A stretch of 64,000 bases of DNA from Octopus vulgaris (Eukaryota): the NCBI GenBank assembly GCA_951406725.2, contig OX597826.1, positions 6,386,001-6,450,000 on the forward strand, written 5' to 3'. The stretch's first letter is position 1; each line of letters begins with the position of its first letter. A program made the translations under genes and the position numbers. Under the pieces are notes generated by a model that was not told where the DNA came from, ran no database searches, and worked only from the letters and a program-made list of their open reading frames with translations. Shown here piece by piece: positions 6,407 through 56,432 of the stretch.

Positions 6407-8560
6407 TATCTATAAAATAATATGTTACAATTACTCAATAGTCAAGATAAAACTCTGAGTTTCAGATGCCGAAGAGATGGTGTTGTGGATTTCCACTTCG
6501 GCATCTGAAACTCAGTTTTATCTTGACTATTGAGTAATTGTAACATATTATTTTATAGATAAATTTCCTCTATTTACATAATATTGAGGTCTCTTTTTTT
6601 CTTTTGTTATCTTACCCTAGAAAACGTCGAAGGTTGCCTGGGGAATACGAAGCCACATCCGATAATATAAATGGGAAGCGTTCTACCATAGTATCAATGA
6701 AATCCTTCAGGTTTTCTCAATTTAGAAGCTTCGTTCATACCGGCGATATTGTACAGCGTTTATGTTATAGGTATCTAGAAACTACGACTGAGAGAAGACG
6801 TGAAACTGGAAATAGGTATAGGTATAGTTTATGGCGTGAAAATTTTGTTTAAGATTATCTCGGGTGGGGAATATCGAAGACGGCTTCACTGCTGTGGACC
6901 ATTTATTTGATGTCTCTAAAATTTTCTAAATAATTCTGATATCACTGTGATACACGTAGACTTTCGTCACAAGTTGTATTTAATGAGAGGGCAATTCATG
7001 CCTGCAAATTCACTCATGAAATTATTTGATACGCGATAAATGATTATGTAACGATGTTAAAAACCCAATGTTAGAAGCCAAATGATAGACTTAGTTATAT
7101 TAATGTAGGTTCATGCCATCCCCCTATAATATTTAAAAATTTAATTAAAAACATTAGCAAGAGAATTTCTAGCCTCTCCTCCGATAAGGACATTTTTAAT
7201 AGCGTTGCCCCAGTATATAATAAGGCTATAACCTATACACCTGCCACTAGCCCAACAATAAAGAAGAGAAGAAGAGGAGACATAGGAATAGGAAAACCAT
7301 CTGGTTCACACACCCCTACTCACCAGAGGTGACCTTCAATATAGGGAAGTATTTCTTAGTACTGACAGATAGACATTTTCCAGTCAACCACACTTACAGG
7401 AAGCACTTCAATAGACACAACTTAAAAATCAGTTTCAGCTCAACTACCAATTTTAAAAATATAATCGCACACAACACACAAAAACCACAATACGAAACCA
7501 GCTGTTCATGCAGGGATAAAAAAACTGTGTCCACTAAATGGAGCTTGCATGTCCGAGACCATCATCTACGAAGCTACTGTGGACTCTATACCCACTAAAG
7601 ACATGGTTTCCCATGCGTGGGCCTTACAGAGGGTAATTTCAAGGCCAGGTTCAATAATCACACCTTGAGCTTTAGGCACTGGGATAAAAGGAAAACGACC
7701 AAAGTATCCAGTCATATATGGTCATTAAAAGATAAAGGTGTCAGTTACAACATCCAGTGGACCTTCCACCCTGCATTTTTCCCTGTGCGTATATAGACGT
7801 GTATATGGAATCCTTTGTGCGCACATGTGGATGTGTGCGTGTGTGAGGTTTGTGTGCATATAGATGTGTACGTGTGTGCATGCATGCAAGTACGTGCGTA
7901 TATAGACGTATTTTACTCAGTGTTTTCCTGTATTATTTTTTATACGTTTGTATAATCCTTTTTGTGCGTGCGTGTGTGTGCGTGTGTGTGCGTATATAGA
8001 CGTGTACTGGTATGTACGTATATGGGCGTGTGTGTGTGCGTACATAAGTGTATGTGCGTATATAAACGTGGTTTACTCTTTGTATACTCCCTTATGCCTT
8101 TTTTCTCTATTGTTACCCTTAATCCTGTTTTTTCTTGTGCTTGTGCGTATGTAGACGTATGTATGAACTTTTACGGTTCGTGTGTGTGTGGGGTGGTGGA
8201 TGTATATACATATATTTTTGGCGAAGGATGCGAGTGAAGATGTGTACTTTTTTCAAGTGAGAGTGTGGGTGAATGTATGCGTACGCACGTGGGTGTGCAG
8301 GCGCACATGTGTAGGTATGAACGGCATGCTTACGTGAATACTATAAAATGTTTAACCCCTTACCTTACTTAGCAGTCATTCGAATAGCTCTTTCGTCTTA
8401 ATAGTGGTCAGTAACACAGTAATTTCCCTTTGTATAACGGTCATTTTTCACAGCGTTTTTCCGTTGGCCGGATAACTGAAGAGATAGTGGCATGGATTTC
8501 CACCTCGGCATCTGAAAGTCGGAGTTTTATCTTGGCTACCGAATACTTGTCACATATTAC
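6407..8560 (+). mobile_element. Decayed Penelope-like element (Neptune-type) with inverted 5' pseudo-LTR piece and 3' hammerhead-like motif
   Basis: About 7080-7760 encodes frameshifted RT-thumb/linker (YINVGSCHPP..., IWFTHPYS..., CSCR..CPLNGAC) and GIY-YIG parts (IIYEATV..., GLTEGNFKARFNNH..., HIWSLKDK); 6471-6550 is repeated at 8478-8560; bounded by (TA)n. Confidence 0.8.
8471..8531 (+). ncRNA. Degenerate type I hammerhead ribozyme in the PLE pseudo-LTR
   Basis: GATAA-CTGAAGA-stem II-GAAA-gtcggaGTT-TTATC; stem I GATAA/TTATC; the 5' inverted copy reads GAAACTCAGAGTT, restoring stem III; stem II base imperfect. Confidence 0.55.
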
Positions 8561-10059: not shown

Positions 10060-11555
10060 AGTTAGTTAGTTAGTTAGTTAGTTAATTTGGCTCAAAAGCA
10101 AATAGCAAGGCCATGTAGGGGGACATGGAGTTAAGTACAGGGTGGTGTTCATGTAAAGAGTTCAGGCCACTTGAGGTCCAGGGAGGCTTTGAACAAAGCG
10201 GTCGTCGGCATCTTCACCATCTCGTCTGGCAGCTTGTTCCACGGATCCGCAACCCGGACGGAGAAAGCTCCTCTCCTTCGATTGAGATGAAATCATCGCA
10301 GGTAGAGCTTTTCGGAATGACCCCCCAGCCGACGCTCTGGAGCAGGAGTGAAGAACAGCTCTTTCGAGAGGTTACACTTTCCGCTTATGATGTTGTGGGC
10401 GAGAATGAGATCACCACGGCGGCGGCGTTTTTCCAGAGAATAAAGGTCGAGCGTCCTCAGCCTTTCTTCGTAGGACAACTTTTTGAGACCATGAACCATG
10501 CGGGTAGCCAGCCTCTGGACTCTTTCGAGATGCTGTATGTCTTTGAGGAGATAAGGAGAAGAGGCTTGAATCCCATACTCCAATATGGGTCTCACCAGCG
10601 TGACATAGAGTGGTAGGAATATGGCTGCTGTGAGCATTCCGAATGACCGTCGAATCAAGAACAGAATTCCGCGTGCTTTGTTGGCAGCATGGACGCACTG
10701 GGCCGAAGGCGAAAAGGAGGAATCCACCAAGATACCCAGGTCCTTTACCTGATCGGTCCTCTCCAGCAGCAGACGACCCGGCTCGAAATCAAGTTGAGTT
10801 GCAGGAGTAGAGCTGACAGGCAGATGACAGCACTTTGACACGTTCAGACACAGGTCCCAATCGTTAGACCACTTCCAAATTTGGTGGAGGCATCGACGAA
10901 GATCCTCTATATCACCGCGAGGAGCGACCAGTTTGATATCGTCGGCAAATAGAAGGGTGTGTTGCGTGAGGTCGTCGGGCAAGTCATTTATGAAGACTAA
11001 GAACAACAAGGGCCCAAGCACTGAACCTTGAGGCACGCCACTGCTCGCACTGGAGACGTCGGACCGCGAACCATTAACTTGGACTTGGAAGGAGCGATCT
11101 GAGAGGAAGGCACCAACCCATCGTATAATATCCGGATGGAAACTATATGCTTGAAGCTTGACAAGTTATAGGCGATGGTTTACCGAGTCAAAAGCTTTGG
11201 CAAAGTCCAATAAAACGATGTCAACAGCATCACTATCATCGAGGATGCGCGGCACCAATTCTTCCATTACTAGTAAGTTGGTCAAGCATGATCTCTTCGG
11301 CACGAAGCCGTGTTGGGAATCAGAGATAGAGGCTGTGTTTAGGAGGTGGAGCATCATACTTTTCTTAAGGATGGTTTCGAACATCTTATGATTATTGATG
11401 TAAGGGAAACCGGTCGGTAGTTAAGCGTGTCTTCGCGGCTCCCTTTCTTGAAAATTGGGCAGATTATCGCTGTTCTCCAGTCTGCAGGTATAACACCCGT
11501 CGCCAATGACATATTGAATAGTCGTGTTAAGGGCTCGCAGATGACCGGAGCCTTG
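10060..11555 (-). mobile_element. 5'-truncated CR1-clade LINE (RT pseudogene)
   Basis: NYRPVSLTS, QHGFVPKRSCLTNL, LDFAKAFDSV, PQGSVLGPLLF, FADDIKL, LERVQRLATR, RRRRGDLI; in-frame stops at 11166 and 10293; natural stop 10149-10151; 3' stem-loop and (AACT)n tail. Confidence 0.93.
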
Positions 11556-11967: not shown

Positions 11968-12466
11968 TGTATAAAGTTTGAATGTGGATTCGTCCTTTAA
12001 TTTGGAGGTTTCCAAAAAAAGGTTATTAATGTTGCTTCTTCATATTTTGCTGGGAGTTTACCGGCATAAATTTGCGAAGATATGAAGGTAGTGCTTATAT
12101 AATAACATATGGCGAATTCATGGAATGAAGTCCCATAAAATTCATCAGTTTATTTTAAAATGGAGGAGACAATATATCCTTGCAATGATGGACAGAAGAC
12201 CAATATTGCCGGGATTAAAAATGGTCTGCGACTCAAGAGTAGAGCAAGACGCTAAAGGCGAAATTGTCAACAAGTAGATAAATGAAACAGAAATGCACTA
12301 CTATAATACCAATATTGGGAACTGAAGATTCATTGATGAGTAAAATTGACATGTGAAGAACGTCACCGCTATGCTATTCAGATATCTTTGTGAAATATAT
12401 GACTAATTAGATGGGTAATTTTAATACTATGATAGTAGTAATAATAACAACAACAACAACAACAAC

Positions 12467-15622
<3,156 letters not shown>

Positions 15623-20171: not shown

Positions 20172-21790
20172 GTAAGAAAATAATGGATTTTCCGGAAATA
20201 GCTCGCTGAAAATAGAAGACTAACAAATGCCATAAACTAAAGCAACGTAGATAAACAATAGCTTAGTTCTTTTGGTATTGAGAAGGAAAAGAAAATAACA
20301 CTTTTTTTCGTATATCAGTTAAACGCTCTTCAAACAAAATTTTAAAAAAAGTATATCGTAATCGCTGTTGTGAAACTTGTCTGGAAGTTTTGTGTTCGTT
20401 TTGTTTTTAGTCATAGATAAAGTTGGTATAAGGTTACGAAAAGTATGCATGCTTCCTACGGGTTTTATCTCTTTTGCATTGTGCGTTGTTTTATTTTACT
20501 TTCAAACTATTTTCTTTATCTCGCAATCGAACAAACAATACAAAGATTAAAGACATACAACAATCGTTAAATGATTATTTAGATATTCGTGTATACTAAT
20601 CATTGTTTGGAGAAAATATGTACAAGTGCAAGTATTTAAGTCTACCAGGTATATCGATAATCGGTTGGACAGGATTTAACTAAAAAACAACGTTTTTGAA
20701 AATTATTTGCACCTTGATCAGACACAGGCAAACATTTCTTTGTATTTGGTTTTGTTTGGAGATTTCAGTTTGCAGACTTAGTGTAAAGAGTAGAGTATTG
20801 TTACACACTATTTTGGAAACAGTTCCACCCAGACGCAACTCATTCATTGTCTTTGTGTTTGCAACCATGAGAATGGTTCACTTGCATTACGGCACCATGT
20901 ATCTTAAGTACTACATGAGACAGTATTTAGCTCATTGTAATCTTTCAGCAATTATCTTTCTATTGTTCATTAAACAAGTTATACGGAAACTTTGTCGGGA
21001 ATGAATGTGCAAAGTATCTGTGTGTGTGTGTGTTGTAGATATATTTTCAAGAGGGATTTTACAGATTAACTAATATATTGAATTGTCCATGTTATGGGGA
21101 AAATTCTCTTCTGTACTTAGTATTTTCGGTTTGAAATTTCAAACACGTCATGGTTCAGTAGAAGCTTATATTTTCATACATTTGGGAATCAACCTCATTG
21201 CGCAATATAAAAAAAATATTGCCATATTGCACATGAATGAGTTAAATTAAATTATTATATTCCACAACTCATGAAATATTTCATTTGATTAAGTATCACA
21301 TTCAGAAACCAAAGTTAAATATACTTTCTGTGAACGATTTTACGTTGAACAACTTATTAAAAAATATACTAATGTTTCCTCACACAGTTATGCACATGGC
21401 AATCACAAGCAAAAATGAGAAATACTGTAACACGTACTGCGCAAGAATATCTAAAATTATTTAGAAAATCCATATGAGATATGTGAGCAATATGTATATA
21501 TATACATACACATTACACACACACACATACATACATATATATTGATATATATATACATATCAATATATACATATACATATATGTATATATGCATATATAT
21601 ATATATAACTATATATATATATATATTGATATATATATATATATACAAATATGTATATATACACATATATATGTACATCTATATATACATACATATAATG
21701 AGTTCAGTATGTGGCAAAGTAATTTATTTTACTAAGCCCTTTTATATAATGTAAAAATACATACATATATATATATTAATATATGTATAC

Positions 21791-23703: not shown

Positions 23704-23708
<5 letters not shown>

Positions 23709-24276
23709 AATGAAGGAACGGCCATAATAGGCCATTCACCCACTAGAAATAACAGCCAAAGCTTCAACCGCAAAACAACATTAATTCCGCAAACCAGGAG
23801 AAAATTAAAAAAACATTTACCCTGTAGTTCCTTATACGATGCACCGTTTCATCTATTGTTTAATGGTAAACCAACCTGATTAAATTAAATCAAGCTAGTC
23901 TTCCATAGGCCGATAGATTCGTCAGTAAGAACAGCCAGATCGGAGCAGATATTTACACGAGGCACTTTTATCCCTGTCTCGGCAATATCTGACCTAAAAT
24001 TTTCAAATCATCGCACTCGCGCCAAATTTATCGGCAGCAAATATAAGCCGCCGATTCCATTACGGAATTAACCAGAAAATTCATAATTAATCAATATAGG
24101 GTGGCAAAAAATTCCGTAGAATGTTTTTGCCACCAGCGGCCTAGTGGGAAAAAGTTAAATAGTCATAGACCATTTATAAATTCAACATCACAATCAAGGA
24201 ACGGCCATAATAGGCCATTCACCCACTAGAAATTACAGCCAAAGCTTCAACCGCAAAACAACATTAATTCCGCAAA
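23704..24276. repeat. Element with ~90-bp direct terminal repeats (23704-23793 and 24187-24276)
   Basis: atcacaat(g/c)aaggaacggccataataggcc...ttccgcaaa repeated at 483-bp spacing with about two mismatches. Confidence 0.85.
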
Positions 24277-24285
24277 ACATATATA

Positions 24286-25519
24286 CAAGGTTTGTACAAA
24301 ATAATGGAAACATCTTAAAATTTCAAAGAAATTAATGTTAATATGGAGTAGGACCACCTTTGGCACTAAGTACAGCTTGAATACAACGAGGTATGAACTC
24401 GTAGTTTGAATTGTTTTCAAAGGAATTTAGTCCATTCTTCAGCTAAAACAGGCTCCAGTGCTTGTAGTGGTGATAGTTGAAGATATCGAGTCCTTATTTG
24501 TTTTCTTTCTAAAATGCACCATAAATATTCAATAGTATTGAGGTCTGGGGACTGTGGTGGCCAGGTAAGATGTTCAACCTCACTAGAATTTTCCTCGTGC
24601 CATTCAGTAACAACTTTCGCTGTATGAATTGTTGGATTATCATCCTGTAAGATTGCGTTTCCCTCCGGAAACAGTTCCGCAACAATAGGATGAATTTGAT
24701 CAGATAAAATTCTTAAATAGTCTTGACTATTAATTCTGCTATGAAGGGAAGCCATTGGGCCGACGGATTTCAAAAATATAGCACACCCGCCAAAACCTGA
24801 TCATCACAAATCCTCCTCTATGTTTAACAGTTTGAAGAAGGCAGTTTGGGTCAAATGATTCTTTTGGCTGTCTCCACACGTATACTAGGCCGGGGGTCGG
24901 AAATAAGTTAAAGGATAACTCAACCGAGAAAATAAAATTCTTCCACTGCTGTAGGGACCAATTCTGTAGGTCTTTACTCTACTTTAAACGATTTGCAATG
25001 TTTGTTTTTGAAAGTAATGATTTTCTGATTGCAGCCCTCCTACGGAATCCGGCTTTGTGAATTTCCCGGCGAACAGGCTTTGTGGAAATTCGGTTCTCGT
25101 GGTGGCCATTAAGCTCTGCCGTAATTGTGGGAGCTGTAATTTTGTGATCATTTCTAACAATTCGAATAAGAGCCCGACGTTACCTATCTGAAAGTTTGGG
25201 TTTTCTTCCTGTGTTTTTTTTCGACGAGGAGGTTTTCTTTTCCTCTTTTTCAAAGTCTGTCATTTCTTTCGAGACTGTACTTCTTGATACACCAAACATT
25301 TCGGCTGTTTTCATTACGCTAGTACCTATCATACGAGTACCAACAATGTGAGCTCTGATGATGTCTGAAAGGAAACAGCAATTTTAGCAAAACATATTAA
25401 GTAACACTAATAATAAATTAAAAAAACATAAAAATAAACAAGCTTTTGACGGTTTTATAGATATTTTAAAATTATGATGCTATGATGCGAGGTTTGTGTA
25501 TTATTTTGTCCAATCCCCC
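24286..25519 (-). mobile_element. Decayed Tc1-family DNA transposon
   Basis: LQDDNPTIH and WPPQSPDLNTIEYLW (DD34E motifs); imperfect TIRs caaggtttgtacaaaataat / attattttgtccaatcccc; TA at the left end. Confidence 0.88.
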
Positions 25520-55481: not shown

Positions 55482-55518
<37 letters not shown>

Positions 55519-55545
55519 AAAATAACAACAAGAATGGATTAAAAT

Positions 55546-55631
55546 CTCGGTACAATTGTTTCGTACGAGGACATCTTTAATAAGCTACAAAAATTGCAGT
55601 AAATACAGATGACTCGTACTCGTCAGCCGAA
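55546..55631 (-). ncRNA. Type I hammerhead ribozyme, intact core
   Basis: Minus strand: stem I UUCGG, CUGACGA, stem II GUACGAG...CUCGUAC, GAAA, stem III C-AAUU-G, GUA cleavage triplet, stem I' CCGAG. Confidence 0.88.
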
Positions 55632-55791
55632 AAGACATCAGAGAATTCCCAAAACATCAAAAGGGGTAGATACAAATGAGGGTGTAAGATTAACTGCATT
55701 GAAGAAAGTTCGATTCCTGGAGATCCGATGAAAGGTCTTGAACTTACAGAATTTGTGCATGTCTATATATAGCTCATATTGAATTGTTAAT

Positions 55792-55821
<30 letters not shown>

Positions 55822-55827
<6 letters not shown>

Positions 55828-55918
55828 ACAATTGAGGGTAAAATTAATTAATCAATTTCACCAATTTCTGAACACTTGGTGAAATTGATTAATTTATTTT
55901 ACCCTCAATTGTTGATAT
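55822..55918. repeat. Fold-back (43-bp arms, 1 mismatch, 11-nt loop) adjoining (TA)n
   Basis: atatcaacaattgagggtaaaattaattaatcaatttcaccaa / ttggtgaaattgattaatttattttaccctcaattgttgatat. Confidence 0.92.
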
Positions 55919-56134
55919 TATAATTCATTTCTCTCTGCCATACTGCCTTGGTTCTCGCGGTTAAAATATAATGTTTGCTAGATAGACCACGTGAGTGGAA
56001 AAGGAGTGCAGAAATTTACGCCGCGCATTTTGAATTTGTTAGCACTTCAGTTGGAGCTGGTTCATTTGAAGCGACAAGTTCGCAGAGAGGTAAAGTTCCT
56101 TCTTTTTAGTGTTTCCAAATCCAAATTAAGAAAT

Positions 56135-56197
56135 TTTGAGCTGACGAAAGAAATGCTGATTTTATTTGGCTAATCTTGAAACGTTGACGTACTCAAA
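56135..56197 (+). ncRNA. Type I hammerhead ribozyme, intact core
   Basis: Stem I UUUGAG, CUGACGA, stem II AAGA..GCUGA/UUGGC..UCUU, GAAA, stem III CG-UUGA-CG, GUA cleavage triplet (after 56191), stem I' CUCAAA. Confidence 0.85.
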
Positions 56198-56379
56198 CGA
56201 TCTATGTACTTGTGATATTTTTCTGTATTTACCTCCAAACCTTCGTGAGCTGTCTGGAGTAAACATTATCTGAGAGAAATTTTCTTTAAGTAGTAGAAAT
56301 GGCTAAAAAAATTTTTTTTGGCTGCTATTTCTACTTAGTTCAGTATGTGGCAAAGTAATTTATTTTACTAAGCCCTAAT

Positions 56380-56432
<53 letters not shown>

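Follow-up and report, generated by a model that had tools for sequence, protein, structure and literature searches.

What larger element does a small hammerhead motif in a 64-kb stretch of the Octopus vulgaris genome (the window) belong to, and how did it come to lie between two tracts of (TA)n? With a probability that we put at roughly four in five, it is part of a protein-free hammerhead repeat of 561 nt, a non-LTR retrozyme, which is pasted into (TA)n by a borrowed Penelope-like RT/GIY-YIG enzyme. Directly established are the unit and its dispersal, the arrangement of its arms both in tandem and head to head, the two fixed 3' ends within (TA)n and the lack of an ORF.

A descriptor search yields three hammerheads in the window, one at 56135 on the plus strand and two on the minus strand (55632–55545 and 23931–23829). 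The first of these comprises the following features:

56135..56197, plus strand: type I hammerhead motif from the descriptor search, with a GUA site and a predicted cut after 56191
56129..56203, plus strand: predicted extension of stem I past an internal loop, 56129–56131 pairing with 56201–56203; one pair is changed on both sides in subfamilies

The sequence features of type I are present (CUGANGA core, GAAA, NUH site, stems I–III, open stem I). Stem I consists of 6 bp (56135–56140 with 56192–56197), the core strand CUGACGA occupies 56141–56147 and the GAAA strand is also in place; stem II has 4 bp plus a 5-bp upper helix, and stem III an A-U pair and 2 bp closed by a 4-nt loop. Thus, every part of the hammerhead named in a preliminary description of this DNA (stem I, cores, stem III, GUA) was recovered at its position. 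Not one of 200 block-wise dinucleotide shuffles contained a hammerhead of this quality, and loose matches occurred at a mean of 0.055 per shuffle. Hence, the motif exceeds chance expectation. It resembles the canonical metazoan type I hammerheads, for which passages in Cervera and de la Pena 2014 (PMC4209133) give a helix I of 6 bp, a helix II of 4 bp and a short helix III with self-complementary cap. It differs from them in that G10.1-C11.1, highly conserved according to the same passages, is absent, and in that an internal loop and a further helix lengthen its helix II. At the base of stem II the window copy has A-U, where seven of eight aligned variants have no pair.

Activity of the lone window copy is uncertain: compensatory change inside the hammerhead is weak (two pairs; 450 of 500 shuffles scored as high), and stem II begins with A-U or with unpaired bases. 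The 63-nt motif alone is of unexceptional stability (folding z -0.73), and the hammerhead fold at -9.2 kcal/mol is near the minimum (-9.6) without being the minimum. The pairing probability of stem III is about 0.1; that of stem I is predicted at about 0.3 in the linear context of the window versus 0.64–0.77 in a circle. In Rfam no hammerhead model matched the motif, whether at the gathering score or with E relaxed to 10. The internal loops of the extended stems I and II, candidates for a tertiary contact of loop 1 with loop 2, are conserved. The stem III region is self-complementary if G-U pairs are included, so that a dimeric fold between tandem copies may be possible, as passages in PMC4209133 describe for animal hammerhead motifs.

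The preliminary description had placed the hammerhead in a cassette with a fold-back 5' end, a 97-bp hairpin, a conserved end and flanking (TA)n. In the numbering used here the unit starts at the first base after end A, the window position 55868 corresponds to unit position 42, and the cut follows position 367. The parts of the cassette are:

55794..55825, no strand: left (TA)n target tract, its final bases being common to end B
55822..55864, minus strand: short arm in inverted orientation, unit positions 50–92, with the fixed end B as its terminus; left arm of the hairpin
55865..55867, no strand: three unmatched bases where the arms meet head to head
55868..56385, plus strand: long arm, unit positions 42 to 561, ending at the fixed end A, without ORF; 97.5% identity to the unit of locus L003
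56338..56385, plus strand: conserved end; it would supply the 5' half of a branched RNA structure predicted to enclose end A in tandem or circular RNA; common to a clan of sister families
56386..56430, no strand: right (TA)n target tract

Flanks and conserved end are thereby confirmed, the latter recurring elsewhere in the window as a 54-bp stub of the family's end A (21701–21754). The hairpin (55822–55918) also exists, but 97 is its length in nucleotides, whereas its paired arms measure only 43 bp, with one mismatch and an 11-nt loop. As it is formed by the long A arm (42–561) together with the 43-nt B arm, the fold-back is an insertion scar and not a conserved 5' structure; it does not belong to the unit but is an inverted second arm of 43 bp. 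MicroRNA-like Rfam matches on the hairpin were discarded, as they lie far under the gathering scores and any long stem yields them. The window copy is a single, 5'-truncated, two-armed monomer, and a young one, given its 97.5% identity to a dispersed unit. Since it holds one ribozyme only, it could not excise a monomer alone.

A search of the 2.8-Gb genome gave at least 87 matches to the cassette, with 95–98% identity for the best, after scoring of 40 among 1,436 candidates. Exact copies of a 51-nt core number 251 (control 0), so that the lack of other copies with preserved core, named in the preliminary description as a refuting outcome, is not what the genome shows. The copies are dispersed over many contigs. 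From tandem copies a unit of 561 nt was defined, with a GC content of 34% and a longest frame of 49 aa. We mapped 97 loci, namely those from the cassette search plus 73 stretches surrounding cores, for which the first 100 among the 251 were taken. Arm counts leave out L005, L016, L027 and L030 (overlap with other loci), L078 (nearly identical to L077), L119 (without any arm at 85%) and arms below 88% identity; L077 was in addition excluded from the counts of polymorphisms and private variants. This left 162 arms with a median length of 488 nt, 61 of them longer than one unit and 21 with at least two ribozyme units.

One tandem row belongs to a diverged subfamily:

L216:1349-4795 (G000:C1): array of six units from a subfamily of 76% identity, the site being GUU and stem II having U-U at its base

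Its five full units differ at 0–2 of 560 sites. Among 19 segments from 10 loci chosen regardless of the ribozyme, most of them about 78% identical to the unit, 18 have an intact ribozyme core. None of 23 common non-CpG polymorphic sites falls inside the 63-nt motif; 73 of the mapped loci were selected by an exact ribozyme match, so conservation counts in that set are biased. A loose hammerhead pattern, run over the whole genome, was of no use because of its noise (1,060 matches versus 454 in the control).

Most arms of the family end at one of two fixed sites. Of the 162 arms, 79 end at A (about position 561), 67 at B (about position 92 of the next unit) and 16 elsewhere; A and B are 92 nt apart, and (TA)n follows in 143 of the 146 A or B ends. 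The 58 head-to-head pairs divide into 48 A+B, one B+B, no A+A and nine with one unclassified end (p 9e-14), that is, one A and one B are found in 48 of 49 classifiable two-armed insertions. In 40 further loci chosen by the end motif alone, all 15 classifiable pairs were A+B, six of which have one common arrangement and are therefore probably not independent. An identical short head-to-head A+B layout recurs in L225–L227, L230 and L235 and is probably carried inside another repeat. In 17 of the 48 A+B pairs neither arm is nested in the other, hence the two arms were probably primed separately. These un-nested pairs rule out fold-back synthesis from the first cDNA as sole source of the second arm. 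Twin priming of the L1 type, which partitions one linear RNA, is ruled out by the wide overlap of the arms.

The following course of events would produce such insertions. Tandem loci would be transcribed, two hammerheads would cut out a monomer, and this would be ligated into a self-paired circle. A Penelope-like enzyme would nick both strands of (TA)n, reverse transcription, beginning at A on one strand and at B on the other, would travel around the circle, and a head-to-head junction would unite the two cDNAs. In the window copy the B arm would have halted after 43 nt, leaving the hairpin. Parts of this scheme have a precedent in the purified Penelope-like protein of the anole, which acts on AT-rich DNA, cutting and extending each of the two strands, and initiates at two internal sites of the RNA that bound the genomic tail (PMC11167929).

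With regard to the template, 130 of the 162 arms cross the cut site and a single one starts there, which rules out the cut linear monomer. No indel was seen at 158 crossings of the cut site, in a sample partly selected for an intact core. Differences at common polymorphisms amount to 2.1 per kb within insertions, as against 12.9 per kb in comparisons between loci. Private variants common to the tandem units of one arm number 20 (at 12 loci), those common to different arms of one locus 16 (at 10 loci). From the private variants common to the units of one insertion and the lack of indels at the cut site we infer one circular template. One circular RNA per insertion fits these data, with which a homogeneous linear multimer would also be compatible. 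Of 69 within-locus comparisons, 10 show differences at two common sites or more, in one case at five, and 132 private variants are present in only some copies of a locus, versus 29 in all copies. The unit, the cut site included, is covered by contigs of four runs presumed to be RNA; as contigs reveal neither strand nor ends nor circles, we give them no weight on either side, and none of the sequencing runs containing the unit is on record as RNA.

Folded as a circle, the unit is predicted to reach -147 kcal/mol in sense (z -4.9), compared with -105 kcal/mol in antisense. The monomer is thus predicted to be highly self-paired with the ribozyme free to fold. Circles of a 602-nt sister family and of the third hammerhead family of the window gave predicted z values of -6.7 and -6.1, respectively. 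The 76% identical subfamily has 111 of 180 predicted pairs in common with the unit, nine of them changed on both sides. A branched head around A and B is conserved over seven diverged copies, with seven pairs changed on both sides; this was reached in 3 of 500 shuffles, a figure inflated by the relatedness of the copies. The end motif of this head has 6,687 exact occurrences. The 602-nt sister family has wholly different ribozyme stems at a nearly equal distance to A (192 versus 194 nt).

These observations lead us to a more detailed proposal, which we advance tentatively, at somewhat less than even odds. One closed RNA of 561 nt would serve each insertion; a Penelope-type dimer would sit on the branched head with its sites starting at A and B, and the head would be a covarying cis-recognition module of a retrozyme clan that swaps ribozyme stems while the distance to A is kept. 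If so, the insertions of the family would record rolling-circle, double-primed retrotransposition in the genome, and the family would offer a substrate ready for use in reconstitution.

The advice in the preliminary description to seek a Penelope-like link was apt. A copy of the unit joined to an RT/GIY-YIG ORF, which it had suggested looking for, was not found among the fetched loci; L096 and L117 were inspected as candidate joins and rejected. Neither did the sampled families (150 of 6,136 and 150 of 10,406 candidates scored) include an autonomous element sharing sequence with the unit. The partner candidates considered, a 781-aa RT/GIY-YIG family (CxxC linker), a 717-aa family and several fragments, were dismissed as having no sequence in common with the unit.

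Both candidate families are young. In the 781-aa family (L065:781-5470, G000:C5) an upstream frame of 479 aa overlaps the RT/GIY-YIG frame, and many copies are intact. It sits in (TA)n and has two 3' ends about 35–38 nt apart, i.e. a short tail. Its 3' region holds a hammerhead-like motif with an altered first core strand. The Penelope-like 717-aa family (L256–L267, e.g. L258:2100-4541) forms full-length tandems of about 2.59 kb and two-armed insertions in (TA)n, and carries a hammerhead-like motif in which C replaces U4. A Pfam search of its protein gave no match; a distant likeness to the 781-aa protein exists (23% over 219 aa). Its tail measures 70 nt, and its two-armed insertions are A+B in 8 of 8 cases, so that the A+B layout is found also in an ORF-bearing family. 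The 602-nt sister family (L146–L165; 2,056 candidates) has the end structure in common with the 561-nt family, a different hammerhead and a tail of about 110 nt; where the query forced one B end, the partner arms ended at A in 9 of 11 and at B in none of 11.

The hammerhead immediately upstream belongs to a different insertion:

55517..55793, minus strand: truncated copy of another hammerhead family, an independent neighbour; motif at 55632–55545

This family (1,173 candidates) has two 3' ends of its own, and the 561-nt unit occurs in none of 19 other loci of it. The view that the two hammerheads represent two families and not a duplication is upheld; the two ribozymes, which point away from each other, are independent insertions, and their adjacency is incidental. 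The suggestion in the preliminary description that the ribozyme may be sense within or downstream of the transcription unit of a long gene model found no confirmation: among 72 open frames of at least 55 aa between 25,000 and 64,000 none reached the Pfam cut-off, a test that short exons could escape. The stretches at 7075–7750, 10293–11420, 12411–15428 and 24417–24800 contain a broken Penelope-like ORF fragment and, judging by how their motifs look, putative remains of two LINE-type reverse transcriptases and part of a Tc1-like transposase.

How well do other explanations account for these data? The ribozyme might be a mere passenger of transposition and the template an uncut linear read-through RNA from homogeneous tandem loci, with no need of a circle. 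We regard this as rather unlikely. In its favour, the anole Penelope-like element inserts from unprocessed RNA, with uncleaved RNA as main substrate and ribozyme mutants still being inserted (PMC11167929), and in the octopus family the 5' ends disregard the cut site, alleles are mixed at some loci, and a homogeneous source array would equally give like units. Linear copying, however, only shortens arrays, and yet a near-identical hexamer exists; the private variants that tandem units have in common at 12 loci and the retention of the core in subfamilies of 76–78% identity argue in the same direction, as does its maintenance in the sister family despite wholly different stems, 192 versus 194 nt from A. 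It appears improbable that the copies are instead pseudo-LTRs, i.e. 3' stubs left by an autonomous Penelope-like element of which the copies with ORF escaped our sample. The family was fetched in part only, and stubs with tail and inverted arm are, in passages of PMC8557442, the commonest product of such elements. However, past end B the same non-coding unit always continues, 61 of the 162 arms exceeding one unit, 14 free 5' ends outside (TA)n (one masked) have no flank in common, and the ORF fragments nearby are wrongly oriented or parted from the copy by (TA)n and other repeats.

It is still less probable that the two divergent hammerheads and the hairpin, three structured elements within 700 bp, act as one functional cassette or regulate a host transcript. 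Among the fetched loci the two families are never together elsewhere, the hairpin is accounted for by the B arm, the copy is young at 97.5% identity to a dispersed unit, and the nearby exons are without Pfam support. The lowest probability of all we assign to a satellite-like repeat amplified at the DNA level. Unequal crossover has been proposed for tandem retrozyme arrays of vertebrates (bioRxiv 10.64898/2026.07.22.740005), but dispersed, short (median arm 488 nt), 5'-truncated copies with fixed 3' ends in (TA)n largely refute it here.

As far as sequence can tell, the family has the features of the animal non-LTR retrozymes, i.e. of non-autonomous Penelope-like elements, and would be a new member of this group. 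The metazoan non-LTR retrozymes of Cervera and de la Pena 2020 (PMC7229834) are, in the available parts of that paper, likewise non-coding tandem units of low GC with one type I hammerhead each, predicted to form self-paired circles and coexisting with Penelope-like elements. They differ in size, 150–450 nt there versus 561 nt for the octopus unit; those same parts mention neither the two-armed A+B layout nor (TA)n targeting nor cephalopods. Li, Clavereau and Pollet 2026 (bioRxiv 10.64898/2026.07.22.740005) also regard retrozymes as non-autonomous Penelope-like elements and propose the same mobiliser; 561 nt is within their range of 51–972 bp, and they recognise solo monomers, too. Their link rests on co-occurrence and pseudo-LTR homology in frogs, whereas ours rests on insertion scars, no homology having been found; their sample covers 31 vertebrates, 3 insects and a coral. 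Of nine predicted frog retrozyme dimers, one cleaved in vitro (bioRxiv 10.64898/2026.07.22.740005).

The endonuclease-bearing Penelope-like elements (Craig et al. 2021, PMC8557442; Frangieh et al. 2024, PMC11167929) leave similar marks, for which passages of PMC8557442 list partial tandems, an inverted 5'-truncated copy, a one-end tail and a (TA)n bias; judging from the portions of these two studies that treat initiation, two internal start sites and priming on both strands are likewise common to them and our proposal. The portions on the tail give 30–40 nt versus 92 nt in the 561-nt family, which in addition is without RT/endonuclease ORF. In vitro the strands showed no difference in start site (Frangieh et al. 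2024, PMC11167929), in contrast to the strict pairing of one A with one B in the octopus family. Among the papers listed in literature searches none deals, judged by title or abstract, with this family, with a retrozyme of cephalopods or with a counted rule of A+B pairing; families of this kind may be listed in the supplements of the retrozyme papers.

Taken alone, the locus is unremarkable, a dead-end copy from a repeat family, and both the retrozyme class and its proposed mobiliser are already in print. The family as a whole constrains the open question of how animal retrozymes are mobilised, as strict A+B pairing is common to it and to an ORF-bearing Penelope-like element of the same genome; it also adds evidence for one template per insertion and for a covarying RNA head at the start sites.

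Type I hammerheads are not confined to the families considered so far. The third one of the window (23706–24278, minus strand; motif 23931–23829) forms part of a tandem unit of 483 nt that ends in (TA)n, and represents another retrozyme-like family. Further type I families, all with a long stem II, were seen in the flanks of the fetched loci L008, L012, L034, L038, L039 and L042, as well as L066, L089, L090, L124, L127 and L176.
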